A stretch of DNA of 64,000 bases from an uncultured bacterium (lineage in GTDB: Bacteria; Omnitrophota; Omnitrophia; Omnitrophales; Aquincolibacteriaceae), in assembly GCA_964562525.1 (NCBI GenBank), contig CAZLTL010000005.1, positions 876 through 64,875 on the forward strand. Direction: 5' to 3'. Positions 41,824-64,000 of this stretch are shown piece after piece. The notes below the pieces were generated by a model, which did no database searches, was not told the origin of the DNA, and saw only the letters and a list, made by a program, of their open reading frames with translations. Each line of letters starts with the position of its first letter. The stretch's first letter is position 1. The translations under genes were made by a program, and so were the position numbers.

Positions 41824-42699
41824 ATGAATACTGCTGAGATACTAAAGAAAGTTCGAAAGATTGAAATTCGCACCACCAAATTGGTCAATGACCTTTTTGG
41901 TGGAGAGTATCAGTCGGTATTTAAAGGTCAAGGGATTGAGTTCGCCGATGTCCGCGAATATGTTCCCGGAGATGATATTCGCAGCATTGATTGGAATGTT
42001 ACCGCGCGATCCGACCGCGCTTTTATCAAAAAATATATCGAAGAGCGCGAGTTGACGGTTATTTTTGCGGTAGATATGTCCGCATCTCAATACTTCGGCT
42101 CCCATTACAGACTTAAATCGGAAATCGCCGCGGAAGTCACAGCGCTTTTGTCTTTTTCGGCGGTTAAAAATCACGATAAAACCGGATTGGTTATTTTCAC
42201 CGATGAAGTTGAGAAATTTGTGCCGGTTAAAAAAGGCAAGACCCATGTTCTGCGCGTGGTACGCGAAATTCTTGGCTATAAAGCCAAGAAGTCCGGAACC
42301 CGTATTCAATCCGCTGCGGAATTCCTCAGCCGTATATTAACCCGTACTGCGGTTATTTTTATTATTTCCGATTTTATTGATCATGACTATGAACGCGGAT
42401 TAAAAATCCTTAGTCAGAGACATGACGTGATCGCGATTCAAATCAAAGATCCCATTGAGAGCCGTTTGCCTTCCGCGGGGATTGTCGAGCTATACGATAA
42501 TGAAAGCGGGCGGTCGATTTTGCTGGATAGCTCATCAAAAAAAGTTCGACATGCTTTTGAGCAGGCAGAAGCAAAGCGCTTAGATAAGCTTGACTCTCTT
42601 TTTAAAAAATTGGGGATTGATAAGATCTCCATATCCTCCGAAGAGTCTTACGTTGAGCCTTTAATTCGTTTTTTCAAAAAAAGAGAAGGTAAGAAATGA
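41824..42699 (+). CDS. DUF58-domain protein (vWA-like; MoxR partner)
   Basis: REYVPGDDIRSIDWNVTAR motif characteristic of DUF58, immediately downstream of moxR. Confidence 0.75.
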   Translation: MNTAEILKKVRKIEIRTTKLVNDLFGGEYQSVFKGQGIEFADVREYVPGDDIRSIDWNVTARSDRAFIKKYIEERELTVIFAVDMSASQYFGSHYRLKSEIAAEVTALLSFSAVKNHDKTGLVIFTDEVEKFVPVKKGKTHVLRVVREILGYKAKKSGTRIQSAAEFLSRILTRTAVIFIISDFIDHDYERGLKILSQRHDVIAIQIKDPIESRLPSAGIVELYDNESGRSILLDSSSKKVRHAFEQAEAKRLDKLDSLFKKLGIDKISISSEESYVEPLIRFFKKREGKK

Positions 42700-47031: not shown

Positions 47032-47094
47032 TCGTTATTTTTTCAGCGTCGAAAATGAACCAAAAAAATAATTTTAAATAAAGGAGCGATTTTT

Positions 47095-47541
47095 ATGGGA
47101 AAACTCATGCAGTCATTCAATGAAGAAATCAAAAATGCTATGCGTGCCAAAGATGAAGTCAAGTTGGGTGTTTTGCGTATGGTTAAAACCGCGATGAACA
47201 ATGCTGCGATCGCCAAATCTAAGGATCAGCTGGATGATGCTGAAGAATTAGATGTGGTTCAAAAGCAAGCCAAGCAACGCCGTGAAAGTATCGATAGCTT
47301 CGAAAAAGGCGGACGTGCTGAGCTTGCCGCCAAGGAAAAGGCCGAGTTGGCTGTTTTGGAGGCCTATTTGCCGAAGCAAATGTCAGATGATGAAATTAAA
47401 GCGGTGTGTCAGTCCGTTATCGCTAAGGTTGGCGCAAAGAGTGCTGCGGATACGGGGGCGATCATGAAAGAACTGATGCCATTGGTCAAAGGCAAAGCTG
47501 ATGGTGGCCGTGTTCAAACCATCCTTAAAAGCCTGTTTTGA
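47095..47541 (+). CDS. GatB/YqeY-domain protein
   Basis: ~148-aa helical protein whose N-terminus (FNEEIKNAMRAKDEVKLGVLRMVKTA) resembles the YqeY family. Confidence 0.6.
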   Translation: MGKLMQSFNEEIKNAMRAKDEVKLGVLRMVKTAMNNAAIAKSKDQLDDAEELDVVQKQAKQRRESIDSFEKGGRAELAAKEKAELAVLEAYLPKQMSDDEIKAVCQSVIAKVGAKSAADTGAIMKELMPLVKGKADGGRVQTILKSLF

Positions 47542-47731
47542 TATGTTGTTTTTATTGGCGCTTTCTACTTGTGGCTCTATGGCAATTTGTTAACATAAGA
47601 TACATTATAGGACTCAATTAAAGCATAGGGAGGGTTCTTATCTTTACACAAAACCAAAATATTCAGGTCCTGGCTTTGATCCCGTCAAGACATCTAATCA
47701 GCTCTTCCTTACCCCAATAAGGATTTCAACG

Positions 47732-49090
47732 ATGTCACCACAAACATCTCATCCAGAGCCGAGGAATCATGTTGTTGTGGGCATTGTTATTTGTATTCTA
47801 ATATTTTCAGCTGGGCTATTGCCCATCGACTCGGTTCGACCTCTGCAGTTATTGGGTTGGCCCGTCTGGATTTTTTTGGTAACGCGTTTAAGCCTGAAAT
47901 CGGGTTTAACAGCATCCCTTTTGATTAATCTCACGCTTAGTTTATTCGGCTCGTTTTGGATTGAATATTTCGGCTCTGGGTTTCTTATCAAGGCTGTGTT
48001 GTTATCGTTTTGGGTTTTACCGACATTAACTTTGATTTTTCACGGTATTCGAAAAATAACAATGCTTGGAAACGCTTTCGCTTTGGTTTTAGCTTCTGTT
48101 TTTCCCGTGGCATTCATTTCGCAATCACCCCTTTACCAGGGATTTTTTAATTTTCCGCTTGTTGCTGAGCAAATTCTTTTCTTGTTTCATGGTTCGTTAG
48201 GCCTTTTTATTTTAGGAGTCGCTTGGATTGGTTTATGTGCCGGAGCCTTGGAATTGCTCAAGACTAAATCTAAAACAGCTCTGATTATTACTGCCGTTAA
48301 CAGTTTAGTTTTGATACTCGCTTTTGGTTTTGGCGCATTTCGGACAATGGAAGAAACGTCAAATACTTCAATTGATCCAAACACAGTAAAAAAAGTGGCA
48401 TTAGTTCAACACAACGTCCCGTTCTTTTCTGATTCACGCGACTTGCAAGCTGTTTTGGAATCTTATGCTATTAAATCAATAGAGAGCGTAAAACGCGATC
48501 TGATTGTTTTTCCTCTGTATGACTTACCTGAAAACTTGCAGCGCGACCTTATTGATCCGGATAGCGGATTCTTTCGTGATCTTGCCTTGAAAACAAATTC
48601 GGGTATTTTAGTTGCTACTAAGCTGTCAGGATTGGTTGCTTTTGGTAAATTTTCGAATAATTTTGTCATTGCCGCAGCGCTTCGTTCCGGCGCAGGTTCG
48701 CTGGATGGTGTGCATCGCTCTTCTGCGCGTTCGCCGTTTCATGATCCCAGACAAGTTTTAGAGAAATATGATGTGATTAAGTCGAACGAATTTGGAACTT
48801 TTGGTGCTTTGATTTCGTATGAATTAGAAACACCGGATCGCGCCCAAACTGCGAAAAGGCTCGGCGCTAAGTTTCTGGTGGGTTTATCAAACCCCGGCGA
48901 CGCACCCTATTCCCCTTTACCTGCTTATCAGCTTAAAGAAATCCAGAGGCGTGCCATTGAAACCAATCTGCCAATTTTATCGGTAACCCCGAACGGATAT
49001 TCGGCGCACATCGATTCGCGGGGACGGGTTGTTAAGAAATCGCAGCTGGGACAATCCGAAATCTTATTAGCAGACTTGGTCGTAATTTAA
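47732..49090 (+). CDS. lnt: Apolipoprotein N-acyltransferase-like protein (Lnt architecture: polytopic N-terminal membrane domain + C-terminal CN-hydrolase-like domain), with apparent substitutions at catalytic positions
   Basis: ~6 TM helices, then the Lnt-hallmark VALVQHNV (compare VALVQGNI). At positions aligned by eye to the E. coli Lnt triad: IVFPL (Glu to Leu) and ALISYE (Cys to Ser). Confidence 0.55.
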   Translation: MSPQTSHPEPRNHVVVGIVICILIFSAGLLPIDSVRPLQLLGWPVWIFLVTRLSLKSGLTASLLINLTLSLFGSFWIEYFGSGFLIKAVLLSFWVLPTLTLIFHGIRKITMLGNAFALVLASVFPVAFISQSPLYQGFFNFPLVAEQILFLFHGSLGLFILGVAWIGLCAGALELLKTKSKTALIITAVNSLVLILAFGFGAFRTMEETSNTSIDPNTVKKVALVQHNVPFFSDSRDLQAVLESYAIKSIESVKRDLIVFPLYDLPENLQRDLIDPDSGFFRDLALKTNSGILVATKLSGLVAFGKFSNNFVIAAALRSGAGSLDGVHRSSARSPFHDPRQVLEKYDVIKSNEFGTFGALISYELETPDRAQTAKRLGAKFLVGLSNPGDAPYSPLPAYQLKEIQRRAIETNLPILSVTPNGYSAHIDSRGRVVKKSQLGQSEILLADLVVI

Positions 49091-49154
49091 TTTTCTGTGG
49101 AATAATGACGGCGAGCTGGTCGCAGCCCTTAACCTCAAGCAACAAACCTAACCT

Positions 49155-52100
49155 TTACGCTGAGGCTTCAACCTTCTTGCGGGATGCAAGCTCAATGAGC
49201 AGTGATTTGAGAGCTTCGTTGTTCCAGTATTTGTTCATGTCGCGAATGCCGTTGCTCAATCGGGTATCCACACCAGGCGCGAATTGCAGATCAAATTGTT
49301 TTGCTCCGAACTCAATCGCTAACTTACCTGTCGAAATCGCTTTTGCTATGAGCTCCTGATCCAGTGTATTTTCACCGTCATAAGCAAACGTCATCAATTC
49401 ATGATCTGCAGGATTATTTGCAGCCAAGGTCTGATTCAACTCTGCCAACTTAGCGAGCATACGGTCATTGGTTGCCAGCTCTCTTGGCATCAAGATTGTG
49501 CTGCTGCTGATACCGATTCGAAGAATCTTCTTCGCGAGCACCTGAGCGTCGATTGCTTCGATGTTCGCAGCTGAAATGACGTCCACGTCGTTGATCTTCA
49601 AATTTCCGGTAGGATCAAGCAACATCACATTGGTTGTGCTGCGACCAATTTTAGATTTAAACGGACTTTGAACTCCGGCAACACCCTTCATGATTTGCTC
49701 AACAGCAAGTCGTGCTTTAGCATCAAGCGAAGCGTTTTTCAACGCTTCAAGGTATTCATTCATCAGCAGTACTTCTGCGGTGAATGAAGCGGCCATCGCA
49801 GATCGCTGCATACCCTTGACTGTTTCAAGATAAGCTTCAATTTCGCGAAGCATATCGATGTTAGAACCATAAAGCCCTGCGAAAGGAAGCAATTCGGAGT
49901 TAGCAGCAATAAGTTCGTCTGCTGTTTTCCCTTCCTGCGCGGCGTGAACCGCTTCGTGACTAACAATCGCAATTGCCATCCGCTCAACCATAACCGCGTA
50001 AGCTTGATCATCGAGCCCAACAAACTTATCAGGATTGAGAACAATCTTGCCTGCTATATCTTCGTTGGGCTCTTTTATGTCTGCATAAAGACCGAGCGCA
50101 TTGTTAGCAAAATAATCTCTCACCTGCTCTGGCGTTGCAAGCTCAATCGGCGGCAATGTCATATTTTTTAAGGAATCTGATTCTGGCGCTAACTGAGAAA
50201 TCTTTTTATCTGCAAGATTTACTATATCCGATAGAACTGAGTCTCTTAATTCAGATCGATTAGCGCTCACGGGTTGTTTTTCTGAATCCACAGCATCTAA
50301 CCCCATATTTACAGGCATTGTTGTTTCTGTAACAAACGCAGAACCCTTATCAGTACCCCAATTTTGAATTAAATCATGCACTCCAAATACCCAGCTGCGC
50401 ATATACATTGCCGCAGCCTTTTGGATATTGTCGGATTTTGTTACCTTAAACAGTTCAGCAGCTTCGCTTTCGGTTAAAATCTTTTCTCCGCGCTGCTTGA
50501 TCTCAGGCTGATTATTTTCCGCGAGTTTTGCATTCACTATAGACTCAGCTAGTTCTTTGTCACCGCGGCTAGCGGCATCAAGCCACTGAAAAAACCAGCG
50601 TGACATGTCAATCTGACCAAAATAATCAGATTGTTCTCCAAAAATAGCGCGATAAAGCTTGAATGCTTCTTGATAGTCGCCTTTTTCAAGCATGGCATCA
50701 GCTTGAGTGAAATTACTTCTATACTTCAAAATTGGGCTGTCACCTGCACTCACAATCTTACGGTAACTTGCCATTTTCTTAAGATAGAGCTCGTCCATCA
50801 TCGCGCCCGCTGCGGTAAGGCCTTCGTAAGCTTGATTTGCTTCACCTTCAGGCAGTGCGCGCAAATAAACTGTGGCAAAGTACTCAGCAAGAAAATCGCG
50901 TGCGATTTGCCCCTGGCTATCGGAACCTTGTTTGTGAATCCAAAGCATCATTTGAGCTTTCATACGCGTTTCATCCGCTGTCTTGGGATCAGCAACGATT
51001 GAAGTTAATTTTTTCTGAAGCGCGGATTCATCTTTAAGTAAAGTCTGAACTCCAAGCTGCTCTGCCAAATACTTCTCAGAAGCCCATTGGTCGAGCAAAT
51101 ATTCCATGGTTTCATGCAGCATAAAGGCACGAATCACACCATCGATTTGAGACTCTGAAGCCCCCATGGAGCGCATCAAATTCAGCTTCTTCAAGAGTTC
51201 TGCGCTGAAAAACATAATTTTTCCAGAAACATGAGCTGCTGCATCAGGATCAGAATCAACCGCTTTTTGAATATCGCGCAATACAAGCGCTGCATTAGTG
51301 ATAAAGGTCTTTGCCATAGGCTGTTCTTCGGCAGAAAAATTATTCCACTGCATTGACTCGAGTGATGCGGTTACTCTTTCTGCGGTTTTTTCGATCCAGG
51401 TTAGATCGACACCTAATCCATAAACGCGACGGAATTCTGAAAGAACATTCGTATGCACCATTTCTTCGGATTGATTAGCTAGGTCAAGCAGAGCTACCGT
51501 TCCTTCCAGATTTTGACGGAGGTCTTGTTCTAAAGCATTCTGTGAGCGCGCACTTAAAACTGCATTTGCAAAGTCATTACGGAAGGTTCCTTCTGCAAAC
51601 ATTGTAGTAATCAATCCGCCAGCATCTAATCCATGAACCTCAGCTAACATCTGAATACTTTCAGGCGTTAACCATTCGTATCGAGCAGCAATGGCCGCAA
51701 AAGCATCTTGAGTAATATTTGCGCGCAGCTCCATGTCTGCAGCAAATACCTGCTTAAGTTCTGCGATCGAAATATTAGTATTAAGCAAGGCTGATAAAGC
51801 TGAGTAATGCTGCGTGTTGATTTCGGAGTCCACCATTCGAAGAGCGTCTTCAACGGTTAAGCCCGCCTGTTTGGCATTCGCCAATACCCATGCCAGACTT
51901 TGTGAAGAACCTAGACCCTGCGTCTCAAAGCTAGCTATGGCTTTGAGATAAACATATTGCTTAAACATCGAGGTTTCAACACCTCCCAAAGCTTGTGCCA
52001 CAAGTGAATCAAAGATTGCACCGTCATTTATTTTTTCACCGGCCTGGCTAAGTAAAATTAACATCAATTGGGCTGATTTTCCGATGACTTCGGCATACGA

Positions 52101-55100
52101 CGCAGGAGCAAGCTGTTGGATGCGCTTAAGTGTTTGTGCAAAAGCTAGTGCCTCAGTAGAGCGTTCCCCATCACCCTGCTTAGTCATTTGCTTGATTAAG
52201 ATCTCATACTGTGAAGATGCAGCTCGATTACGCAAAACTTCCGAAGCTGCGCGCAATGGAGCTCCCCAGGTTTTCTGAGTTGCCCAGCGCGAAAGAAAGT
52301 TTTCGGTGCGGCCTAGAGTCTTACTGAGCGACTCAGCAGCAAGCGAGGTCATCTCATCATCACTTACGCTAAAGACCGCTTTTGTTAAACGCGCGTCAAA
52401 TTCTTGAACCAATTGAATGTAGGTCTCAATTGATCTGATGCTTATCTCGCGCGGCAGCGCTTTTACAAGATTTGCATGATGACGGATAATGAGAGATGCC
52501 GCTTTCGCGTCTATCAATAAATTCAGCTTACTTAATTCAGCGGCAGCATCCTCACCACTCATGTTTAAAATATTCGGAACTATTGCAGCAAGAGAATGAT
52601 CGCTTTTAAGACCTATCAGCGGAAGAAGCGTATTATTCCACCATCCCCGAATATTGTCTGTCATTCCGGGCATCCAGCGGCTTTGCGTAAGGGCGAGCAC
52701 TGCACCGAACATTCCAGCAGCAATCAAGAAAGCCGGTGTCCAAACAGCTCCGACCACAAGTCCAACAGAAGAAATGACTAATGCACGCTTGAGGTCGTTT
52801 GAATCATTGCCTTGCGTACCATACGCAAATGCTTTTAAGCGGTAAGCCCAGACAGCCGGGGTCAAATTCGTCTTCAAAAATCCTCGTTCGGTGCTGAGCG
52901 CTTGATACATTTTATCCTCTGAAATTTTAAGGCTTTCTGAGCGACGGATCATCCCTGATTCGAGATTTGAACGACGTGTACCTTGGGTAAACACGTTCTG
53001 ATAAACAGCAGCCTGCGCGCCCGTATTTGCAAAACCCATCGTGCGAATAGCACGCCAAGCCGCAAATTCAAAATTACGACTAACCAAAGTGCTCGCCAAC
53101 ATTTCACCAAGCAACGCATTCTGAGAATTACCCAACTCTACTTGATAATCAGCTAATGCATGACCGATGAATTCAAGCCGTTTAGCAAGATCCATCGAAT
53201 TTCGGCTTTCAAAAATATTCAGAGTGTTGAGATATTGAACCGCAGAGACCATGGCGTCATTTTGGCTTGATCCGCGATCAAAAGTGTCTCCGTTTAACGA
53301 TGCAATAAGCGCGACGGCCTCAATCACAGCACCTGCCGAAGACGGTGTGGTCACATTTGCGCCAAAAACTCCGCGAAGAAACTGAATCGAACGGTAGGCT
53401 CGGCCATTGACGGTACCCACTCCGATGTCACCTGTTTGCTTCCAATAATCAATTACCCGGTCAGCAAGTTCTGCCGAAACACCGCTTTCGTACTTGAGCT
53501 CGTTAATCGCGCGTTCAGGATTGTTCACGCGTTGCGCAACGTGCTTTTCGTATTTTTGTGCTTGTTCATTGCCCGCTATTCGGCTTTCGCGTGACTTAAG
53601 AATATAATCACTAAAGAGCATGACGGTTTTTACGAAGTCACGCGGGCTACCCTCTTGCTGGCGTGCAATGGAATAGCGGCCATCAGCATTGTCGGCTTCA
53701 ATCCGGGCAATATCAAATTCTGATGAAACCCGCTCACCCGTCATAGCACGTTCAATCGACATTAAATCGTGGAAATTGAAAACATGCTGTATCAATTCAC
53801 GAGATAGCCCTGTTTGAAGCAGTTTCTCCATCAAGGAGCCTCGCTCAACGCGGCTGGTTTCTGTCTTATTTCCAAAAACTTGCTGAATAGTCATTTCAAC
53901 CTGTCGGCGCACAAATTCACGGCCATCAACACCATCGCGTGAAAGCTCAGTCCACTCATTGCCGATTTTACCTTCTTCAAGCTCCGAGATGACTTCGCGG
54001 ATTTTTTTGAGCATTGGTTCATCTGCATTAAATGTAACAAGTAACTTTCGCATACCCTTCATGACCATAAAATCTTGCAGATACGTGCGTACAACTGCTT
54101 TTGCGCCCTCGGATTGATGCAAAGCTTCATTGAACTCCGCATTCAGGGTCAATACGGTTTCACGGCCAAATTCGCGTACGAGCTCTGCATTGAGGATTTC
54201 AGAAAAACGGGCGGGATCAATGCGCCCAGGCTCTTTCAGGCTGGCGGCTAATTCGAGAATTTTGCCGTACATCTGAAGTCGTGATTCGTAAAGAGCAATG
54301 CGGTTTTGCGACAAATTAACTTGCTCGTTAGAAGCATTCTTCATAACTTCAGATTCGATTGCCCGCACGGCTTCGAGTTCATTTGCAGAACGGGTTTGCA
54401 TGCGGTGCAAGAAACTGACAAAAGAGTCGTATGAGACTTCTCCGATAGCGGTTTTCAAGTTTCCTGCTAATGCTTCGGCATCTGCAAAAAGTCTGATTTG
54501 ACCCTGATTGGAGCGGTCGCGACCGATGACTTGCGCTAAGAAATGTGAGGCATAGTTCTGAACATCAAATGCAAAAACATGGGTCGCGGAAAGTGAGCGT
54601 GCTTCGTCAGGTAATACCTTCTTGAGGATATCAATCAGAGCTGTCTCACCTTCTTGTCCTTTGTATTCAGGGTTTTTCTGATTTTCTTTCATTTGCTCAA
54701 CCGCAGAATTGATTTCCCGATTTTCGCTCACGCTCATTTCACGAGGACGGGCTGCATTCAACCCGGTTCCGCCCACTTCGGTTGCAACGAGGATGCGGAA
54801 CCCTGAAACCATCTCACGTGCAAAACCAGGGATATTAGCTTCATTGGTATTTTGATCGACATTCAATATTTCATATTTGGCATCAAGTAATCCCTCTGCT
54901 TTCATTTTTGCAACTGACTCATCAATCCATTTGCGCATTTCAGGGTTACGCAGCACCATCACAAAGTTATCGTTGAAGACAACATTCGAGTTGCCTTTTT
55001 TCTCCGAAGCCTTAGCAACCGCATCGCGCATACTGGCTTCAAAAGAATCTTGGAACGCTACTTTTGAGACATTACCGTCCAATAATACTGTGCTAAGACG

Positions 55101-58100
55101 ATCGACGGATTTCGATGCGTAATAAGAAAGATCCGGAGCACTGCGGCCAAGCTCAAGTAACGCGTTTCCGGTGAATAGACGAATGTATTCAGGCATCGTC
55201 GCCGTAAGCGCCACAGCTCCGCGGATAAAATTTGACTGCACCGGCGTACCCATCTTAGTGCGTAACCGACCCAGTGAACCAGAATCAAACCAGCTTTCAA
55301 GCTTTGTCCAGTCTTGAATTTTGACTGAGCTGCTTTCAACGGACACGCCTTCTGTTTTTTGCGCGCCAAGTTCAGGTGTCACATCTGCTTTTTCAAAACC
55401 GTACTCACTAACTGTTTTGCCAAGTTTGCCGCCCAGGTCAGAGAAATACTTGTAAAGAGAAGCGATTTGCAATGCCACATCACTTGATTGCTGGTCTTTG
55501 TGAATGCGGATATTATCCGCGGGTTTTAATACCAGCCGCGCAAGCCCTTGTGCATTTTCTCCCACCATCACACCCATGCGGGTTTCCTTACCATAAAGTG
55601 CGAGAAAAATAGAAGAGAACTCACGAGCGAGCTGGATGCCGTATGGCGCTCCGATTTTCGTTAATTCGGCCTGAAGACCCGCAGTAAAAATAACTTGTCC
55701 GCCCAATTCATCGACATAAAAAGCTTTGCGGCCCGCACCCTCAGCGCCAAAATACTCAGAACCCAATGTGTCAAATTCACTACGCTTGATTTCTTCATAG
55801 CCCTTTTTCTTAAGCGTATCAATGAATTCAAAGTATTTTTCAATTGTTTCGCGCCCCACAAACTTAGGACGATTACCATCGGCAATGATGGCTTTCACAC
55901 GGCTGAACGCAGCAAATTGGGCTTCATCGAGCACAACTCGGTCGAATTTATCGTTGAGATAATGAATTAAATCTTTGCCTGCCGGACTGTCAATGTTGTT
56001 AAAAAGATGCGTCTTAGAAAGAATATCTGTGACCAAAACACCATTTTCTTTGCGGGCAAGTTCAGCCTGCAATCCGGCAAAATCACGATTACCATCCGCA
56101 ATATATTTATCCGCAAGAACCAATTCCATGCCGAGTGCTTTAGCAACTTGCGAGTTCGTTAAACCCGAACCAAACTCAATTTCGGTCGGCATTTTATTAG
56201 AAGACATTCGGTTTTCTAGAACAAGCGCGACGCGCCCTTTGCGCTCGTTAAAGTTACGGTTTGACATATAAAATGCCGAACCCAAAAGCTGCCCGCGGGT
56301 TTTACCGATGCCGGTTCCGGCCGAAACGTCAAAACCAAGGTCGATTCCTACTGCAATCATAAAATGCGCAGCACCGCGGCCCATCATATCCGCGAACGGA
56401 CGATCTGTTATATCGGTTAAACCTTTATCGCTCAACATTGCAGTTTCTCGATTAACACGCCCGTCTTTAGTCATCGTGGTTTCAAAAATAACTGTTTCAA
56501 AAATATAATTCTCGACTCGGCTTGCAAATTTCCCTGCAATTTCTTCGCGACCATTTGAGTTTTTATCAAATGTTTTGCGGATTCCATCGACAAGCTGTCT
56601 TGTAAGACCTGATTCCATCACATTTCTTATTTGCTGACGTACAGCTTGAATCGCTTCCTGATTTCCTGAACGTGCTGCATCAAACAGACTGGTGTTCAAG
56701 TTCTGCGCTGAAAGCTCTTGGTGTAAACGATCGCGTGCCGCAAGCACAAGATCAGCCGTTGATGCACGAGCAAGCAATGCCGTAATCTCAGACTCGCTTG
56801 TGGCTTTAATTAGCGCATCAAGCACTTCCGTTTTTCCGTCAACACGAGTTGCTTCAATCAAGGCACCGCGTAGTAACTGTTGAATTCGGCTGCCGGCCGT
56901 TTCTTTGATGCTCAACGCCTCACCGAGACTTGTACCCGTGGCAAACTGCACCAAATCAGCCACTTGCTCAAGCCCTGATCGATTGACTACAAGCTCTACT
57001 CGGCCTTTTAAATTTGATCCTTCAATCTCTAATTTGCGAATCTGATCGTGAACTGTTTGAATTTGTTCTGCGGAGCCTTTTTTCTGATAAAGTCCCTCAA
57101 GCTCTTGTCTCAATCCGTCAAGCTTCGTGTTTAGCGCTTTGTATTTCGGTTCGATCACGCGAACCTCGGCAATAGCTTCAACCCAAGCTTTCATCGCGGC
57201 TTTTGTTTCAAATCGTTCAATCATTTCGTGGTTTGACATTTTGAGCATCTCACGAATGGCTTCCGTGCGGATTTCAACATCGGTTTTGGATGCGGACGCA
57301 TCGATGTTTTTGAGTTCTTCGAGAGTTACAGTCTTCCATTCTGCGGCCAGGTATTCAAAAAGTGCCATTCCCGCATTTTGCGGTCCGGTGAGCTGGCGCA
57401 GCATTGCCAAAGTCTCGTAGCTGATATGAATCGTTTTGCCGTTAGCATCAAGAATGACGATACCTTCAAATGATTTATCCGCATTCTTGGAGGCGACACG
57501 GAAAACTTGAGCAGCCTTGGAGGGCGCTCGTGACTGAATCTCAGCAATGGCTTCTGCCGCTTTTTCCGCACGGATTGTCGGTGCGGCTTCATTCAAAGTA
57601 ACAGTCAAAACAGCGCGTGCGGCATCTTGTGCGCTGATTAACTCCGCTGGAGGTGCTAAATTTGTGAGCTGCGCCACAAATGCTTCGGCTAATGCCGGTA
57701 GTAAGTCGCTTAAACGTGTATTCAAAACCAAATTATCCTTAAACGCCGCGTCACTTAATCCAGTTTCTTTTAAAAACTCTTTTAATGTCTTACCGTTAAC
57801 CGCGTCAAACCCTTCATGTGCGAGCTTTACGGCTTCATTGAGAACGTTGGCAACTGTTTCAGTTAACGCTGCAGAATTTTCGGTATCGATAAAAAGGTCT
57901 GATACAAGTGTTCGTAAATATCCGCGATTGGACTGAGCGGTAAAAGCTTGAAAAAATCCTGATACCTCTTTAGCTGCAGTTGATCCAGAGAGCATTCCTT
58001 CGATAAAAAGATGCGGCTCAGATAAGATAACGCCACTGCTTAATCTTCCGCTCACATCCATATCTTTCAAAAGTTCGCGTGCTGCATACTTGTCCGTGAC

Positions 58101-61100
58101 TTTAACGCCTTGAACATCCGCTTCTGCGATTCTGCTAAATGAAACATTTTCAGTTTTCGCATCAGTTACGCGTGCTTCGGGCTCAGCGAATGAAATTGCG
58201 ATACCAAATTCAGCGAGTGTTCTACGCGAGGAAGCATGGTTCGCAATAACGTAGAAGTTAACCGTCGTCAAATCAATCGGCTTAGAGTCTTTAGGGAGAT
58301 TAACTTGCTCAAGACTGATGTCTTTTCTTTCAAACAAAATTTGATCTACCAAATCCATGCGCCGCTGTTGGTAAGCCTCTGCCAAAACGCGTCCGCCATC
58401 TGTTTGCGCTTTAACTTCCGTGATCCGCTCTATGGCGGTTTTGAAATCTGAATTAAAGCGCCCTTGAGCCGCAGTGGACATTAATGGATGCCGTGCTTGG
58501 GGCACTAAGAAAATCGCATACTCACCGACTCCCTGCATAAATTTACCGTAATTACCTTGAAAGTCGTTCGCTGCGGCAAACGCAGCAAAGCTGACGGGCA
58601 TCATGAAATAATGTGCCAGCATCATCGGAATTGACTCAAGCGTAGCCGGCCCGCTTACGCCGCCAATCGGAGTATAAGTTCCGGTCAAAAGAGCGGTAAC
58701 ACCATTAATCGATGAAAGCACCGCATTAAACATCAACATATTGTCAGCAAATGCGAGGAATTTACCGGCACCGCCGGGTTGAAGCATATGATTTTTATAA
58801 AAATTATTATTGAAAGTATTAGCCAAACCACGGATTAATCCTTGAGTTTCAGATAATGTGCCCAGCGCTCCCCGAGAGTACGTAATTCCGGCAACATGCA
58901 TAACTTGTCCCAAAATTACATCGTGAGCAAGACGCTCTGTACCCCATGCTTCGAGGCTTAGAAACTCGTGGTCGAACCAAGCCCAAGCGAGGCGGACATT
59001 GCCCCAGTTTTCCCATCCATAAGTTTTGCCGTCAGGACCAATATTGGCTCCAAAATCAGCGAAAAGATGTTTAATGCCAAGCAAAGACTCCGCAACAGGA
59101 AAGGCATGGAAAAATATCACGCTACTGTATGCTTGATCCCATAGCGCGCTCACAAGCGCTTTATTACCGTGAATCGATTGCTCCAAAGCTCCAGAAATGG
59201 GCATATAGCCTGATTTAACCGCTAAATCACGGCTGACCAACGGTAAAAACTGAGACTTTCCATCACGCAATATAAATTTGCCGTTCACAATAGATGCACG
59301 CGATACGGATGCGGATAATCCCACAAGAAAACGGAATGCAAATCCAGCGCTAAAAAAGTAGAGCCCCCAGCTTTGAACCTGCTTATTGCCTGTAATTATG
59401 CCGACAGTTAAAGTACCTGCGCCAATCCATGAAGCAACGACGCCTGTACCATAGGCAAAACGTGTTGCGGCATTTAATCCAGAAATGCCGCGCAAACTTC
59501 CTAAGAAAAGCGGCCCCATCAACATGAATCCGCCGGTGACGGCAAGGGCTGTGCCCACCACTTTTAGAAAGGCAATATCGTAGTGGTGTCCCACTTGCTG
59601 CAAGGCGGCACCGAGACCGATTACAGAGGCACTGACTGTATTCCAGCTTTTTAAGGCAGCTAAGGCGGCTGTTCCGAGCCCCTGAGTGGTGCTCCAACCT
59701 TTGGCAAGATCACGCAAGGTGCTGACACTCTTTATTGCATTGGATCCGAACGTTTGCCACCCAGCCTTTGTGAACGCGGCTGCCCCAACACGAGCGCTAC
59801 TTACTGCGAATGATTTGATAAAAACACCCAAGCGTGCCCCCACAGGTAAATACGACAGGGTGCTACCTACATCCAGAGTTGCATTGAGCCATGTTCCTTG
59901 TATGCCGTTGGATTGTAAAATGGCATTGCCAACTGTGCTCGCGAGACCGATACCTCCGAGCGTGTCTACCGTAGTCCAAAAAGTTGATGTGCCGCCAACA
60001 CCGCCCAAAGCACCAAGCCCATATGCAAGACCAATAGCGCCGCCAACCATAGCAACTCCGCCAAATACTTTCAGATAATTGCCGACAGAATTATCTCCGG
60101 CATAGCTGCCTGCCATGTACATACCTGCTCCCACACCTAGCCAAATGGTACCGCCGACAGCAAAAGCACTCGCAGTTGATACAGAACCCACCGCCACTGT
60201 TGTTGATCCGGCTAATACCAATGCACCAGTGCCGTAAGTCACAACAACCATACCCACCACAGCCAAGGCTGCTGCACCACCGCGCAGCCATTTTTCACCC
60301 GTGCTCATATCGCTCCAAACAGACTGCGCGGAAAGCCAAAAACTATTGTCGTAAGATTCACGCATACGGAGTACGCGGCCTGAAGCATCGATATCTTCAA
60401 CATGGGAATGCTGCGAGCCCTCTGCGTAATTGAGATACTTGATAGAGGTCGCCTGATTGTCAGAGTTAAAGGTGCGAGCAAGCTCAAAGCGGTCGTCGTC
60501 GGTGTCTTCATATTTAAATGAAGCCAGTTGCCCCGCCGCATTGAATGTCAGACTACCTTTGAATCCAATCAAATTGACGGATTCGCCAGCATTTCCCGGT
60601 TGAGGAACAAATATCTGTGGATCGTTATCAATGATTCCACCGTCAATAAACTGGTACTCAGCAGCTTGCTTGAAATTATTGTTTTTATAGACCGCAATCA
60701 GTTTATTGTCGCCGCCGTTGTTCTCAGAAAGTGAGAATGTGATGTGATGCGTATTATCATCAACGCGAGTGAACTCATATCCGACACCAGAACCTTCGAG
60801 AGTAATCGGGTTATTTTTCCCCATCAATATCCATTCATGGCCAAATTCAGTCACAATCACTGAGCTGCCAGAAATAAACTGATTACTATTGGTCATATTC
60901 ACCCACGCAACGTTACCATTTACGTCGCGCAAGTAGGATCGTTCGTTTTTTTCTTTATAGGTTTGGCCGGTAGGCATCATAGCGCCGCCAACACTGCCAT
61001 AGCTCACCTGGTATCCCGTTGCTTGCCATTCACCCGTTTTAATTTGCACAAAAGTGCTGCCGTTTACCAGCGCATATGTATATTTCGTTCTGTTTTCACC

Positions 61101-64000
61101 CACTGAAACGGATTGTCGAATGACTTTTCCCTGCTCGTTAAAAACATACGTGGAACTATCACTGAAACTGAATTGAAACAGATTTTTATCAGACGCGCTG
61201 TAACCTTCTAAGCTCATCCCAGACAGATTCTTTGAAATGATATTATTCAAGTCGCTAAGATCTGCCGCAAATGAACCCGAGAAATTAATCAAAGGAAGTG
61301 CTCGAGCGTCTACAATATGTCCGCTTTCACCCTTGACGTCCCATGCCGCGAATGAAACATCTCCGCTTTGAATATCTTTAAACCGAAGAATTGTTCCGCT
61401 TACATTGGTGATTTCATGCGTATCGGTTTTGCTGTATATCAAAGACTGAGCGATTCCCGCTGCACGCGCCGCTTGCGCAGATTCAGAACCGGCTGGCAAT
61501 TTCTCAAAATCAAAATCTATGGCGCCGCGGAATGCGCCGATTAAACTGTTTTTGCTGTCGACAAATACTCTTAAAGCTAAGTCAGTGCCAATTTCGTCAC
61601 CCGAAATAACTTTTGAGGATGTTGCGTGAGTCGAAATCAATTCAGCAACCGCGTTATTCACTGATATTTCCGAGGAAGAAGTGTTCCTTGGATCATTGGC
61701 AGAATAAACAGTAACCGAAGTTTGAATATTGGCTTTATCTTGTTTAAGCTCGCTCTCATTGGCCCAGCGCATATCCGAGCCGAATTGGCGGTCAAAGCCG
61801 TCAACGAGTTCTCCGTCGTTGTTATAGACACCAAGAAAGTCACGACCAATATTTTCACCCGGAAGAATCTTGAACCCTGCGCGAGTTTCAGCATATAAGA
61901 GTCCTTTAATATTGTCCGCGCTGCTGAAAACTGCAATAGTTGCACCCTGCGCCAAAGGATCAGTGCCTGCAAAGAGATCCGTATCCACAAATACGCGGAA
62001 TGAGCTGTTATTTTTATCTGAGCCCACCAACAGCAGGTTTGCCTCAGCTAAACCATAGCGGCCTTCATACTGTTGGCCCGATTGTGATATAAATTTTGAG
62101 CCTTCTTTACGCTCAAGGTTTTGTTGCTGCCGCTGCAATTCAGCTGGAGTTGCCGCTTGCAGCATATTGCCGGAGCGATCGAGCGCTCCAAAAAGTGATT
62201 TACCATCTTCGCTGAGAATCTGATACCAGTGTCCAGAACGATCCATATTGAGCAAAGCACGGTTACCATCGATCTCGATTGCCATTTGCTGTAATGATGC
62301 AAATTCACTCAAATTGCCGAAACGTGTCGCCAAAATCTCACTCGCTTCATTGAGGTAGATTGCGATTCCTGCATTATCTCCGCGGTCACTAATAATTTCA
62401 TATGCCGGAGAAATAGATTTCCAAGTTTTTCCGCTGCCATCACTCAAGCTCTTGTATTCACCGCTCTGTGGCAAGTTGTATCCGGAAGTTCCGTAGGCTT
62501 TCCGCAAAACCTCAGTTTGAGTTTTGCGGTCAAACAGGCCTATAGTTCCGCTTGTGTCGCGTATCAAATAACTTTCTTCACCTAAATGAGGTTGATATGT
62601 TTTTCCGGCAATTTGAAAAAATACTGTCTGGATTTGATCGTTGATCGTACCTAAGCCAGCGGGTTGCAGTACTTCTAATGTCACGCCTTGAAGCATACCA
62701 ATACGATCACCGGATTCGTTTAAATAGTATGCAACACTAACTTCGCGACCATTTTGGTCGAATGCAATACCCTTGACGAATTTGTTGTAGGCAAACTGCT
62801 TGGTAGGATCATTCGATTGAAGTGGATTTAACTTACCGCCAGCTTCCATCTTAGCGGGGCCATTCATGAACTGATAACCTACAAAAGCGCCATTGGCATC
62901 CGTGATCTTGAAGCTGTTGTTGCCCATGCCGGAGTAGCTTTGGTTATTTGCATAGGCAAAAAGTGTCATGGCTTCAAAACTGCCTACGCCAGTTACCATT
63001 CTATCAATCGCTTGATCTAAGCTCAGTGTTTTGTCGCCATTCCACTGGCTGACCAAAGTGATTCTATTCTCATGCGCAAAGAAACTAAAATGTTCTCCTT
63101 TGTTATTTGTCGCGCCAAAGACGCGCTCAACGTTAAGACCGCCGATTGATGTGTTCTTTGCAAATTCACCAGCAACTTTGTCAGTATCAACAGTCTTACC
63201 AGAATCAAAATGACCATTATGCCCAAGCACGCCTACTAATTCACCCGTGCGAAGATCATTAACCTGAAACGCTTGCGCGATATTCATTAATCCGCTCATT
63301 TCGTATTTAAAATTACCAACTTGATAACTCATGTACGTTAAGCCTTCAAATGAAGTCAGAGTTATATTTTGAGAGGCAGGACCATTCACTAGCAAATTAG
63401 CAAATTCAGGCAATCCCATGACTGCATTGATTTCATTCAGTGTTGATTGATTTCCGCGCAAAGTAATTGATTGACCGCGTTCATTCACCAAAAGCTGATA
63501 CATTTGTCCGTTGTTGGCGTCAGCGGTTAAAACTTGTTTCGCTGTGAATGTTGCGCTCTTCAAACCATCGCGCGTATTAAGCGACCAGGTATATGGCGAA
63601 TCAAGTGTGCGCGCATCGTAGAATTTGCCGCTGACACCGATTATTCCGTCAAGACTATGAGTGTAAGGGTTAAACACAGAGTAAACGCCATAATCCCCGT
63701 TTTGGAAAGCTTCAGGCAGGTGGCGATATTCGAGACCATCCTGCGTGTAAAATAATGCAAGTGTCTTATCCTTGCCGACCCCTGTCATCATCAAACTCGC
63801 AATATCCCCATTCTCAAATCCGATTTCAAACGAGGCTTTTTTCTGCGCGCTAAAAAGGGTTACAGACGAATCAATATTTAAATTGAGCAACCCTGATTTA
63901 GTATGAACTTGAGGTTGATCTTTGGTCCAAGTTCTCAAAGACAAGTATTCGCCCTGGTTAATGAACCCGATCACGGCTTGGGTTTTAAGATCGCGAGCGA
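49155..64000 (-). CDS. Giant multidomain membrane protein, >4,939 aa, 5' end beyond the window. Beta-rich N-terminal region, Gly/Ala-rich polytopic TM segment, central SF2/SNF2-like P-loop ATPase, second TM hairpin, long alpha-helical C-terminus with HExxH
   Basis: A single uninterrupted 14.8-kb minus-strand ORF (stop TAA at 49155-49157) that stays open to the window edge. Walker A DVSAGTGIGKT (~56296-56335), Walker B VVLDEAQ (55917-55937), motif V ILVATEVGGTGLN (54761-54805), motif VI AQVIGRDRS (54511-54537). Gly-zipper TM cluster ~59277-60297. HEAVH at 49924-49938. No other frame has comparable ORFs. Confidence 0.8.
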   Translation of the reverse strand, partial: ARDLKTQAVIGFINQGEYLSLRTWTKDQPQVHTKSGLLNLNIDSSVTLFSAQKKASFEIGFENGDIASLMMTGVGKDKTLALFYTQDGLEYRHLPEAFQNGDYGVYSVFNPYTHSLDGIIGVSGKFYDARTLDSPYTWSLNTRDGLKSATFTAKQVLTADANNGQMYQLLVNERGQSITLRGNQSTLNEINAVMGLPEFANLLVNGPASQNITLTSFEGLTYMSYQVGNFKYEMSGLMNIAQAFQVNDLRTGELVGVLGHNGHFDSGKTVDTDKVAGEFAKNTSIGGLNVERVFGATNNKGEHFSFFAHENRITLVSQWNGDKTLSLDQAIDRMVTGVGSFEAMTLFAYANNQSYSGMGNNSFKITDANGAFVGYQFMNGPAKMEAGGKLNPLQSNDPTKQFAYNKFVKGIAFDQNGREVSVAYYLNESGDRIGMLQGVTLEVLQPAGLGTINDQIQTVFFQIAGKTYQPHLGEESYLIRDTSGTIGLFDRKTQTEVLRKAYGTSGYNLPQSGEYKSLSDGSGKTWKSISPAYEIISDRGDNAGIAIYLNEASEILATRFGNLSEFASLQQMAIEIDGNRALLNMDRSGHWYQILSEDGKSLFGALDRSGNMLQAATPAELQRQQQNLERKEGSKFISQSGQQYEGRYGLAEANLLLVGSDKNNSSFRVFVDTDLFAGTDPLAQGATIAVFSSADNIKGLLYAETRAGFKILPGENIGRDFLGVYNNDGELVDGFDRQFGSDMRWANESELKQDKANIQTSVTVYSANDPRNTSSSEISVNNAVAELISTHATSSKVISGDEIGTDLALRVFVDSKNSLIGAFRGAIDFDFEKLPAGSESAQAARAAGIAQSLIYSKTDTHEITNVSGTILRFKDIQSGDVSFAAWDVKGESGHIVDARALPLINFSGSFAADLSDLNNIISKNLSGMSLEGYSASDKNLFQFSFSDSSTYVFNEQGKVIRQSVSVGENRTKYTYALVNGSTFVQIKTGEWQATGYQVSYGSVGGAMMPTGQTYKEKNERSYLRDVNGNVAWVNMTNSNQFISGSSVIVTEFGHEWILMGKNNPITLEGSGVGYEFTRVDDNTHHITFSLSENNGGDNKLIAVYKNNNFKQAAEYQFIDGGIIDNDPQIFVPQPGNAGESVNLIGFKGSLTFNAAGQLASFKYEDTDDDRFELARTFNSDNQATSIKYLNYAEGSQHSHVEDIDASGRVLRMRESYDNSFWLSAQSVWSDMSTGEKWLRGGAAALAVVGMVVVTYGTGALVLAGSTTVAVGSVSTASAFAVGGTIWLGVGAGMYMAGSYAGDNSVGNYLKVFGGVAMVGGAIGLAYGLGALGGVGGTSTFWTTVDTLGGIGLASTVGNAILQSNGIQGTWLNATLDVGSTLSYLPVGARLGVFIKSFAVSSARVGAAAFTKAGWQTFGSNAIKSVSTLRDLAKGWSTTQGLGTAALAALKSWNTVSASVIGLGAALQQVGHHYDIAFLKVVGTALAVTGGFMLMGPLFLGSLRGISGLNAATRFAYGTGVVASWIGAGTLTVGIITGNKQVQSWGLYFFSAGFAFRFLVGLSASVSRASIVNGKFILRDGKSQFLPLVSRDLAVKSGYMPISGALEQSIHGNKALVSALWDQAYSSVIFFHAFPVAESLLGIKHLFADFGANIGPDGKTYGWENWGNVRLAWAWFDHEFLSLEAWGTERLAHDVILGQVMHVAGITYSRGALGTLSETQGLIRGLANTFNNNFYKNHMLQPGGAGKFLAFADNMLMFNAVLSSINGVTALLTGTYTPIGGVSGPATLESIPMMLAHYFMMPVSFAAFAAANDFQGNYGKFMQGVGEYAIFLVPQARHPLMSTAAQGRFNSDFKTAIERITEVKAQTDGGRVLAEAYQQRRMDLVDQILFERKDISLEQVNLPKDSKPIDLTTVNFYVIANHASSRRTLAEFGIAISFAEPEARVTDAKTENVSFSRIAEADVQGVKVTDKYAARELLKDMDVSGRLSSGVILSEPHLFIEGMLSGSTAAKEVSGFFQAFTAQSNRGYLRTLVSDLFIDTENSAALTETVANVLNEAVKLAHEGFDAVNGKTLKEFLKETGLSDAAFKDNLVLNTRLSDLLPALAEAFVAQLTNLAPPAELISAQDAARAVLTVTLNEAAPTIRAEKAAEAIAEIQSRAPSKAAQVFRVASKNADKSFEGIVILDANGKTIHISYETLAMLRQLTGPQNAGMALFEYLAAEWKTVTLEELKNIDASASKTDVEIRTEAIREMLKMSNHEMIERFETKAAMKAWVEAIAEVRVIEPKYKALNTKLDGLRQELEGLYQKKGSAEQIQTVHDQIRKLEIEGSNLKGRVELVVNRSGLEQVADLVQFATGTSLGEALSIKETAGSRIQQLLRGALIEATRVDGKTEVLDALIKATSESEITALLARASTADLVLAARDRLHQELSAQNLNTSLFDAARSGNQEAIQAVRQQIRNVMESGLTRQLVDGIRKTFDKNSNGREEIAGKFASRVENYIFETVIFETTMTKDGRVNRETAMLSDKGLTDITDRPFADMMGRGAAHFMIAVGIDLGFDVSAGTGIGKTRGQLLGSAFYMSNRNFNERKGRVALVLENRMSSNKMPTEIEFGSGLTNSQVAKALGMELVLADKYIADGNRDFAGLQAELARKENGVLVTDILSKTHLFNNIDSPAGKDLIHYLNDKFDRVVLDEAQFAAFSRVKAIIADGNRPKFVGRETIEKYFEFIDTLKKKGYEEIKRSEFDTLGSEYFGAEGAGRKAFYVDELGGQVIFTAGLQAELTKIGAPYGIQLAREFSSIFLALYGKETRMGVMVGENAQGLARLVLKPADNIRIHKDQQSSDVALQIASLYKYFSDLGGKLGKTVSEYGFEKADVTPELGAQKTEGVSVESSSVKIQDWTKLESWFDSGSLGRLRTKMGTPVQSNFIRGAVALTATMPEYIRLFTGNALLELGRSAPDLSYYASKSVDRLSTVLLDGNVSKVAFQDSFEASMRDAVAKASEKKGNSNVVFNDNFVMVLRNPEMRKWIDESVAKMKAEGLLDAKYEILNVDQNTNEANIPGFAREMVSGFRILVATEVGGTGLNAARPREMSVSENREINSAVEQMKENQKNPEYKGQEGETALIDILKKVLPDEARSLSATHVFAFDVQNYASHFLAQVIGRDRSNQGQIRLFADAEALAGNLKTAIGEVSYDSFVSFLHRMQTRSANELEAVRAIESEVMKNASNEQVNLSQNRIALYESRLQMYGKILELAASLKEPGRIDPARFSEILNAELVREFGRETVLTLNAEFNEALHQSEGAKAVVRTYLQDFMVMKGMRKLLVTFNADEPMLKKIREVISELEEGKIGNEWTELSRDGVDGREFVRRQVEMTIQQVFGNKTETSRVERGSLMEKLLQTGLSRELIQHVFNFHDLMSIERAMTGERVSSEFDIARIEADNADGRYSIARQQEGSPRDFVKTVMLFSDYILKSRESRIAGNEQAQKYEKHVAQRVNNPERAINELKYESGVSAELADRVIDYWKQTGDIGVGTVNGRAYRSIQFLRGVFGANVTTPSSAGAVIEAVALIASLNGDTFDRGSSQNDAMVSAVQYLNTLNIFESRNSMDLAKRLEFIGHALADYQVELGNSQNALLGEMLASTLVSRNFEFAAWRAIRTMGFANTGAQAAVYQNVFTQGTRRSNLESGMIRRSESLKISEDKMYQALSTERGFLKTNLTPAVWAYRLKAFAYGTQGNDSNDLKRALVISSVGLVVGAVWTPAFLIAAGMFGAVLALTQSRWMPGMTDNIRGWWNNTLLPLIGLKSDHSLAAIVPNILNMSGEDAAAELSKLNLLIDAKAASLIIRHHANLVKALPREISIRSIETYIQLVQEFDARLTKAVFSVSDDEMTSLAAESLSKTLGRTENFLSRWATQKTWGAPLRAASEVLRNRAASSQYEILIKQMTKQGDGERSTEALAFAQTLKRIQQLAPASYAEVIGKSAQLMLILLSQAGEKINDGAIFDSLVAQALGGVETSMFKQYVYLKAIASFETQGLGSSQSLAWVLANAKQAGLTVEDALRMVDSEINTQHYSALSALLNTNISIAELKQVFAADMELRANITQDAFAAIAARYEWLTPESIQMLAEVHGLDAGGLITTMFAEGTFRNDFANAVLSARSQNALEQDLRQNLEGTVALLDLANQSEEMVHTNVLSEFRRVYGLGVDLTWIEKTAERVTASLESMQWNNFSAEEQPMAKTFITNAALVLRDIQKAVDSDPDAAAHVSGKIMFFSAELLKKLNLMRSMGASESQIDGVIRAFMLHETMEYLLDQWASEKYLAEQLGVQTLLKDESALQKKLTSIVADPKTADETRMKAQMMLWIHKQGSDSQGQIARDFLAEYFATVYLRALPEGEANQAYEGLTAAGAMMDELYLKKMASYRKIVSAGDSPILKYRSNFTQADAMLEKGDYQEAFKLYRAIFGEQSDYFGQIDMSRWFFQWLDAASRGDKELAESIVNAKLAENNQPEIKQRGEKILTESEAAELFKVTKSDNIQKAAAMYMRSWVFGVHDLIQNWGTDKGSAFVTETTMPVNMGLDAVDSEKQPVSANRSELRDSVLSDIVNLADKKISQLAPESDSLKNMTLPPIELATPEQVRDYFANNALGLYADIKEPNEDIAGKIVLNPDKFVGLDDQAYAVMVERMAIAIVSHEAVHAAQEGKTADELIAANSELLPFAGLYGSNIDMLREIEAYLETVKGMQRSAMAASFTAEVLLMNEYLEALKNASLDAKARLAVEQIMKGVAGVQSPFKSKIGRSTTNVMLLDPTGNLKINDVDVISAANIEAIDAQVLAKKILRIGISSSTILMPRELATNDRMLAKLAELNQTLAANNPADHELMTFAYDGENTLDQELIAKAISTGKLAIEFGAKQFDLQFAPGVDTRLSNGIRDMNKYWNNEALKSLLIELASRKKVEASA

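Follow-up and report, generated by a model that had tools for sequence, protein, structure and literature searches.

We analysed a 64,000-nucleotide stretch of DNA from an uncultured bacterium of the Omnitrophota (GenBank assembly GCA_964562525.1, contig CAZLTL010000005.1, positions 876 to 64,875), referred to here as the window. It carries a gene for a protein resembling apolipoprotein N-acyltransferase (Lnt), and this Lnt-like gene converges on an adjoining open reading frame (ORF) for a giant protein (Table 1). A gap of 64 bp separates the two stop codons (49090 for the Lnt-like gene, with the giant's stop codon starting at 49155), which bears out the convergent arrangement given in a preliminary description of this DNA. 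We found that the Lnt-like protein retains the scaffold of Lnt without any residue of the Glu-Lys-Cys catalytic triad, and that it is a member of a previously undescribed, Lnt-derived, triad-less family, whose proteins come from Omnitrophota where they are labelled. Relatives are cited below by locus (L) and protein (P) handles where they have to be told apart.

Table 1 Features of the window, and domain content of large genes next to other family members
Feature	Coordinates	Strand	Remarks
Lnt-like ORF	47732..49090	+	452 amino acids, ATG start; member of the triad-less Omnitrophota Lnt-like family
Polytopic membrane domain	47732..48370	+	Residues 1-213; aligns to the canonical Lnt membrane domain
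Periplasmic nitrilase-like (CN_hydrolase) domain	48386..49087	+	Residues 219-452; reaches the protein end, no eighth transmembrane helix (TM8)
His227 codon	48410..48412	+	QHN after beta1, base of 'Arm 7'; Gly in canonical Lnt
Leu262 codon	48515..48517	+	Catalytic Glu267 position (IVFPL vs IIWPE)
Ser330 codon	48719..48721	+	Catalytic Lys335 position
His337-Asp338 codons	48740..48745	+	PFHD vs canonical PFGE; invariant in the subclade; Asp338 a possible Glu343 equivalent
Ser362 codon (TCG)	48815..48817	+	Nucleophile Cys387 position (LISYE vs ICYE); derived from Cys in the subclade
Convergent giant ORF	49155..64000	-	At least 4947 amino acids in the window, runs off the window end; transmembrane-like segments; no Pfam domain; recurs next to the Lnt-like gene in the subclade
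yqeY	47095..47541	+	Upstream neighbour kept in the subclade (window, L001, L012/13, L014)
L004 adjacent large gene			Weak ILEI and glycoamylase matches
L036 adjacent large gene			RHS/YD-shell repeats
L026 adjacent large gene			HYR, FG-GAP and CHB_HEX_C domains
L002 adjacent large gene			GNAT domain inside the giant

An Lnt scaffold without the catalytic triad

The start Met of the Lnt-like ORF is matched by a homologous Met start in the 82% identical L001 relative. The membrane domain contains helices at residues 11-29, 36-52, 55-92, 95-109, 114-129, 155-178 and 181-206, and residues 221-449 match Pfam CN_hydrolase (PF00795) at 37.8 bits, above the gathering threshold of 23.2. Pfam LNT_N (PF20154) gave no match to the protein at E<=1. 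Against TIGR00546, the curated NCBIfam equivalog model of Lnt, it reached 75.4 bits with a cut-off of 132.9, and a sequence search of the PDB arrived at Lnt only at E = 0.018-0.12, showing that the protein is very divergent. We modelled its structure with AlphaFold2 (AF2), using an alignment of 43 sequences of the family described below, and obtained a predicted local distance difference test score (pLDDT) of 91.2 and a predicted template modelling score (pTM) of 0.91. In a Foldseek comparison with the PDB, the best 24 matches were all Lnt from E. coli or P. aeruginosa (query template modelling score, TMq, 0.66-0.71); they span both domains, with ~490-528 aligned columns at 14-17% identity, and soluble nitrilase-superfamily enzymes (Nit2, amidases and CPA) rank below them. 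Together with the CN_hydrolase match, this confirms the architecture that the preliminary description had assigned, a polytopic membrane domain followed by a nitrilase-superfamily domain. To our knowledge, only Lnt has a nitrilase domain fused to a polytopic membrane domain. The motif VALVQHNV, which had been taken as an Lnt hallmark, indeed aligns with the canonical consensus KVALVQGNI. Weak HU/IHF matches on residues 167-240 (E ~0.01) span the last transmembrane helix and beta1 and were judged spurious.

The catalytic positions were examined in three alignments. A phmmer comparison with the P. aeruginosa Lnt structure 5n6m placed DLIVFPLYDLP under DLIVWPETAVP and ALISYE under PYICYE. A MAFFT alignment of 107 sequences, including 62 canonical Lnts and E. 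coli Lnt, and an hmmalign alignment against a hidden Markov model (HMM) built from 32 database Lnts both assigned Glu267 to Leu262, Lys335 to Ser330 and Cys387 to Ser362, and all three methods agree on Leu262 and Ser362. The E. coli Lnt reference sequence has the expected residue at every numbered position that was checked, those named in the literature included (145, 228-230, 237, 267, 314, 333, 335, 339-343, 352, 387-389, 412-416 and 432; PMC5500890, PMC3850990). The preliminary description had aligned the protein by eye and reported substitutions at two of the three triad positions, Glu to Leu (IVFPL) and Cys to Ser (LISYE). Both of these substitutions stand, and the eye alignment was not shifted, as the profile alignments place no Glu, Lys or Cys at the triad; the count was too low, since Lys335 is replaced as well.

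Further pocket residues have changed with the triad. Glu343 is aligned to Asp338 by hmmalign and to a gap by MAFFT; it is Asp or lost. Trp237 is replaced by Ser235, Asn314 by Ile313, Tyr333 by His328 and Phe416 by Ala391, Gly145 is not conserved (of the residues essential in E. coli, Trp237, Phe416 and Gly145 have thus changed, whereas Tyr388 and Glu389 are kept), and Arg329, which adjoins Ser330, sits at a position that is variable across the family. Equivalents of Gln228, Pro340-Phe341, Tyr388 (Tyr363), Glu389 (Glu364), Asn412 and Arg432 are shared with canonical Lnt (E. coli and P. aeruginosa; TIGR00546, K03820; PDB 5n6h, 5n6m, 8b0l), as is the two-domain fold (template modelling score ~0.70). 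The beta5-beta6 lid loop (Arm 3), measured from the Lys to the Cys position, comprises 31 residues; it is ~20 residues shorter than in E. coli (51) and in canonical Lnts generally (median 49), whereas the remaining inter-motif spacings are those of canonical Lnt, with 24 residues from Cys to Asn and 19 from Asn to Arg. Canonical Lnt has eight transmembrane helices, of which TM8 returns to the cytoplasm. In the Lnt-like protein TM8 is missing: the chain stops 2 residues past the nitrilase-like domain, and hmmalign deletes the ~40 last nodes of the HMM. Its identity to the solved Lnts is 14-17%. In terms of the wider nitrilase superfamily (PF00795), the domain scores above the gathering threshold but lacks the superfamily's Glu-Lys-Cys triad.

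In E. coli Lnt, Glu267 acts as the general base, Lys335 contributes to the oxyanion hole and is stabilised by Glu343, and Cys387 bears the thioester; the E267A, K335A, E343A and C387A variants are each reported to be inactive (PMC5500890). A C387S variant still forms the acyl-enzyme and has no Lnt activity (PMC3850990). Because the triad is replaced, and because neither these Ala mutants nor C387S show Lnt activity, the Lnt-like protein, as judged from its residues, cannot run the Lnt ping-pong reaction by the known mechanism.

A Ser at the Cys387 position is also found in M. bovis BCG_2279c and M. tuberculosis Rv2262c-2261c, and BCG_2279c, whose function is unknown, did not N-acylate any of four tested lipoproteins (PMC3850990). 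Such Ser-type Lnt paralogues keep Glu267 and Lys335, have canonical length and form a separate clade in a neighbour-joining (NJ) tree, whereas the window's protein lacks Glu and Lys and belongs to a family that ancestrally carried Cys. The class is common: of the 62 canonical-type Lnt representatives matched by our query, 28 combine the usual Glu and Lys with a Ser at the Cys position (ISYEVF; the Lys is followed by VHRVP) and group in their own clade (for example P0051, P0055, P0059, P0061, P0085 and P0118).

A triad-less family and its large neighbours

An exhaustive HMMER search of 1.84 billion representatives returned 230 matches with E up to 0.001. About 45 representatives (<=50% identity, 430-490 amino acids) matched over their full length, all of them from Candidatus Omnitrophota where labelled; one family locus, L005, lies in an Omnitrophica metagenome-assembled genome. 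The same label, Candidatus Omnitrophota, is carried by proteins with >=90% identity to SMC and DUF58 of the window. With canonical Lnts (500-540 amino acids), the match was confined to the last ~100 residues. In the 43 full-length members of the family, which share pairwise identities of 20-35%, the Glu267 column holds Leu in 21, Gln in 14, Glu in 3 and other residues in 5, while the Lys335 column holds Ala (26), Ser (13), Thr (3) or Asn (1) and never Lys. The Glu343 column is practically empty. The Cys387 column, by comparison, reads Cys in 41 members and Ser in 2. His227, which follows the invariant beta1 Gln in the QHN motif, occurs in 30/43 members compared to Gly in 41/62 canonical Lnts; it accompanies 19 of the 21 Leu residues at position 262, whereas the three members that keep Glu carry Ser there. 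The short lid loop is found throughout the family (29-35 residues), and a TM8-like tail is present in ~14/45 members.

These features combine into a family signature, QHN...W...FP[L/Q]Y...[A/S/T]...PF...[C]YE...NP..F, in which [A/S/T] marks the Lys position. The window's protein scores 377 bits against the family HMM and departs from the signature by its Cys to Ser, Trp to Ser and Phe to Ala changes, which are specific to its subclade or lineage. In the NJ tree, the family members group together as a single clade apart from the canonical Lnts that were sampled, with the query nested inside it. Its subclade (P0001/2/4/5/6), sister to the remaining family, has lost the Trp and shows invariant His337-Asp338 and Asp390. 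Ser362 is confined to P0001-P0003 and is a derived state, since these are nested among Cys-bearing members. A second, independent loss of the Cys is seen in L046 (3356-4687), L047 (9959-11290) and P0056, where His occupies the nucleophile position (GVLIHFED), so that the nucleophile is dispensable in some lineages. In this His lineage, the conserved Asn has also become Asp (FPDSS), and the Lys position is taken by Glu.

The preliminary description had raised the possibility of a degenerate paralogue. An isolated degenerate copy does not fit the family, which lacks Glu and Lys but keeps the Cys; read from the alignment and tree, Glu and Lys were already gone in the ancestor of the whole fast-evolving family, and only the Cys to Ser change is specific to the lineage. 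The Ser362 lineage is the most degenerate known member of the family, alongside the His lineage. Despite their missing Glu and Lys, P0008 (147 bits) and P0123 (177 bits) exceed the TIGR00546 cut-off of 132.9, and such members will therefore be annotated automatically as apolipoprotein N-acyltransferase. We found no family-specific model in Pfam, NCBIfam or the PDB sequences, and no publication on a triad-less Lnt-like family in the full-text literature. One protein, P0045 (1105 amino acids), has a fusion architecture: its family-type nitrilase-like domain (residues ~54-277) leads into a TM8-like helix, and ~800 further residues extend the C-terminus.

We assessed selection on the gene by comparison with two relatives. 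For the gene as a whole, the ratio of nonsynonymous to synonymous divergence (dN/dS) against L001 (7364-8716; 82% amino acid identity) was 0.20; the membrane domain gave 0.45 and the nitrilase-like domain 0.10. For the same pair, dS was about four-fold higher in the nitrilase-like domain (1.0) than in the membrane domain (0.27), and 0.57 for the whole gene against 0.7-1.7 for the flanks; this pattern may result from intragenic recombination or codon constraint. Proteins encoded in the flanks of the L012/L013 relative share 93-97% identity with those of the window, compared to 34% for the Lnt-like protein and 23-32% for the C-terminal part of the giant. Here dN was 0.73 for the Lnt-like gene and 0.015-0.05 for its neighbours, with dN/dS values of 0.2-0.39 and ~0.01-0.02, respectively. 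The Lnt-like gene evolves 10-25 times faster than its housekeeping neighbours. We considered recent allelic replacement or horizontal gene transfer as the source of the 34% identity to L013 and rejected it: the synonymous sites of the flanks are saturated too (dS >= 1.8), which indicates an accelerated rate and not a recent swap.

Within the subclade, at 33-41% identity, 9/14 positions equivalent to catalytic or essential Lnt residues are invariant, compared to 47/224 other positions of the nitrilase domain (Fisher p = 9e-4). Arg333 is also invariant at the pocket, together with His337-Asp338 and Asp390. The gene is maintained under purifying selection, and its most constrained part is the former active-site pocket, with residues that now differ from those of Lnt. 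These data fit either of two options named in the preliminary description, a pseudo-enzyme or a Ser-nucleophile variant.

The gene order of the window is preserved in L012/L013: sigma54 response regulator, DnaK, MoxR, DUF58, a hypothetical gene, BatA, BatB, YqeY, Lnt-like gene and convergent giant. The link to yqeY is probably syntenic only. The last 24 nt upstream of the GTG listed for the window's giant ORF contain no in-frame stop, and the frame runs off the window end; its homologues were called at 10,374 amino acids in L001 (8785-18719) and 20,477 amino acids in L013 (11552-21353). Divergence of the giant from L001 is mosaic, with 85% identity over the C-terminal 344 amino acids and 27-31% elsewhere. 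An AF2 model of its conserved C-terminal 385 amino acids was unusable (pLDDT 43.5).

To place this arrangement in context, we surveyed 8 genome loci and 33 metagenome loci, supplemented by look-ups and dereplicated at 60% identity, which left 23 lineages, 18 of them informative. A neighbour was scored as large when a stop-to-stop frame of >=1500 amino acids ended or started within 1.5 kb of the family gene. This was the case in 7/18 informative lineages and on 9/29 informative sides, and no end of such a frame fell in the far zone, across the 63 kb in which one could have been detected. If ends were spread uniformly, all nine would fall in the near zone with a probability of (43.5/106.5)^9, or ~3e-4 (~8e-4 without the GltB hit). 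The association is thus with large exported-type proteins as a class, in ~40% of lineages. A shared homologous partner was rejected, as BLASTP found no similarity among the adjacent giants outside close groups. Nor do the N-termini within reach support neighbours that are lipoproteins served by an Lnt of their own: the L032 protein has a lipobox (LVTSAC), its L035 orthologue has none and the L026 case is marginal. The published accounts of giant genes that we consulted mention no Lnt-like neighbour.

The large neighbours are heterogeneous proteins of surface type, some of them without annotated domains (Table 1). In one lineage (L036 1-6294; L032 1-2421; L034 3-2123), the gene directly upstream of the family gene encodes a polymorphic-toxin-like RHS-repeat/YD-shell protein of at least 2098 amino acids with 20 RHS repeats. 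A secreted protein of ~1545 amino acids lies downstream of the family gene in L032 (4397-9022) and L035 (3414-8054). The contigs of L015, L018 and L019 end 75-90 bp past the stop codon of the family gene. These ends may be assembly breaks in a repetitive or giant neighbour, in which case our adjacency estimate is too low.

Possible roles of the protein

Taken together, our best reading of the sequence data is that the gene would encode a functional, non-canonical Lnt derivative, either a pseudoenzyme that binds through its pocket or a rewired acyl-handling protein. We favour, at a probability of roughly 0.4, an Lnt-derived accessory protein of the pseudoenzyme type that would use its retained, membrane-facing pocket for binding. 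According to this model, an inner-membrane protein would have kept the whole Lnt scaffold, with a periplasmic nitrilase-like pocket opening toward the membrane. The branch would have lost the Glu-Lys(-Glu) residues and ~20 lid-loop residues before it radiated, and the window's lineage would later have swapped the nucleophile Cys for Ser. The ligand of the pocket would be an acyl chain or a segment that is lipid-anchored or lies close to the membrane, and the protein would work together with the very large proteins, exported or membrane-anchored, whose genes so often adjoin its own, for instance to anchor, assemble or handle them. The data show the fold, the substitutions, the pattern across the family, the selection, the constraint on the pocket and the adjacency of the genes, whereas a ligand, a partner and a lack of catalysis are inferred. 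What favours a pseudoenzyme in this lineage is the absence of every catalytic residue and of several pocket residues, together with two independent losses of the Cys and fast evolution of the gene. The functional link to the giant gene suggested in the preliminary description is strengthened by a YqeY, Lnt-like and giant order that persists at 34% identity and by the confinement of large frames to the near zone; adjacency is what indicates the tie, and on that basis the protein probably serves giant envelope proteins.

Several observations weigh against this model. No substitution for a Cys nucleophile is more conservative than Ser, and the pocket has gained invariant polar residues (His227 family-wide; His337-Asp338, Arg333 and Asp390 in the subclade), so that a rewired site is conceivable. 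That a Cys is kept almost universally in a periplasmic domain evolving so fast is an argument for chemistry in most members. Adjacent giants are found in only ~40% of lineages and show no detectable similarity to one another, so that the genes could be neighbours because both lie in variable parts of the genome and not because their functions are linked.

A rewired enzyme is accordingly a possible, if tentative, alternative: Cys, or Ser362 here, would carry out acyl transfer or hydrolysis, with His227 and His337-Asp338 as helpers in place of Glu and Lys. Such a site would resemble the Cys/Ser-His type of LRAT or NlpC-P60 acyltransferases or serine hydrolases. With LRAT and NlpC-P60, Cys-His acyltransferases whose fold is unrelated to that of the Lnt-like protein, the analogy is mechanistic only. 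The retention of Cys in 41/43 members at such low pairwise identity is consistent with chemistry, as are the conservation of the pocket above all other regions, the dN/dS of 0.10 in the nitrilase-like domain and the invariance of His337-Asp338 in the subclade. His227 is largely peculiar to the family, tracks Leu262 and is replaced by Ser where Glu is kept, and the beta1-alpha1 loop (Arm 7) at whose base it stands lines the active-site funnel of Lnt (PMC5500888). Ser in place of Cys is also widespread among Lnt homologues, although these 28/62 canonical-type representatives keep Glu and Lys. A universal Cys-His dyad is nevertheless rejected, because at least 8 Cys-keeping members have neither Glu262 nor His227 (Gln262 with Pro, Thr or Ser at 227) and the family therefore has no universal base. 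The His at the nucleophile position of one lineage, the lack of detectable Lnt activity in E. coli C387S (PMC3850990) and the direct sequence adjacency of His337 and Asp338, unusual for a triad, also argue against rewiring. A more specific proposal, which we regard as rather doubtful, is that an Lnt branch, in which residues foreign to nitrilases, Cys/Ser and His (and Asp in the subclade), operate the membrane-facing pocket, was re-engineered into a dedicated lipid-anchoring, acyl-modifying or assembly factor for giant surface proteins of ultra-small, probably predatory bacteria. If true, the biogenesis of giant proteins would gain its first accessory gene and, with it, a biochemical handle.

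The protein might instead be the lineage's housekeeping apolipoprotein N-acyltransferase, highly diverged yet still N-acylating, which is quite unlikely. The full Lnt architecture and the retained equivalents of Tyr388, Glu389, Asn412, Arg432 and Gln228 would suit this role. Since P0008 and P0123 pass the TIGR00546 cut-off, the family may be the only Lnt homologue in its genomes; a published KEGG orthology table, which lists K03820, lgt and lspA as '1' each in two Omnitrophota genomes, fits a sole homologue, and no second CN-hydrolase or Lnt ORF was found within the 64-kb window, so that calling the gene a paralogue, as the preliminary description had considered, would be premature. However, the query has no catalytic residue left and lies far under the curated cut-off, Glu and Lys are gone family-wide, the lid loop is truncated, and mutation of any catalytic residue inactivates E. 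coli Lnt (PMC3850990, PMC5500890). Evolution at 10-25 times the rate of the neighbours is also unlike that of an essential envelope enzyme. Decay of the gene into a functionless lnt remnant, accidentally next to a giant, is highly improbable. The loss of all catalytic residues and of TM8 and a dN/dS raised relative to the neighbours would be expected from decay, but no relative has a broken reading frame, dN/dS (0.10-0.20) is far below 1, and the family-specific invariant residues cluster at the pocket of a fold predicted with high confidence. Synteny has been kept across saturated synonymous divergence, and the adjacency of large genes is non-random.

Lnt is regarded as an antibiotic target and as an enzyme that relies uniformly on Glu-Lys-Cys. 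A family with the Lnt scaffold and, in most members, the Cys, but without the Glu, the Lys and part of the lid loop, would represent a new way of achieving catalysis with the nitrilase fold, or else a clear example of an envelope enzyme turned pseudoenzyme. Lnt (K03820) calls in Omnitrophota are possibly misleading, as triad-less members exceed the TIGR00546 cut-off, and these genomes are probably credited with a lipoprotein N-acylation that they may not perform. The giant proteins of Omnitrophota are poorly understood (PMC10066038), and a small protein of lipid-handling fold that is repeatedly encoded beside them offers a testable lead.

Other genes of the window

The Lnt-like gene stands at the end of a co-directional housekeeping array that includes def, fmt, gap, pgk, tpi, secG, recG, plsX-fabHDG-fabF, smc, plsY, recA, alaS, and his and trp genes. 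The array also contains a histidine kinase with a sigma54 response regulator, dnaK, a moxR-DUF58-batA-batB operon and yqeY. A scan for promoters and terminators across 47000-49500 gave no signal above shuffled sequences. The BatB-like protein with VWA and TPR domains (44713-47031, + strand) has a low-complexity C-terminal region of ~290 residues rich in Gln, Asn, Gly, Asp and Lys, and the overlapping ORFs on both strands at 46117-46912 are artefacts of this repeat composition. It is 75% identical to the L013 copy, compared to 93-97% for its operon neighbours. Between the DUF58 and BatA genes lies a gene for a 326-amino-acid protein (42696-43676, + strand) without a Pfam match, which at 68% identity to L013 and a dN of 0.26 evolves much faster than its operon neighbours.

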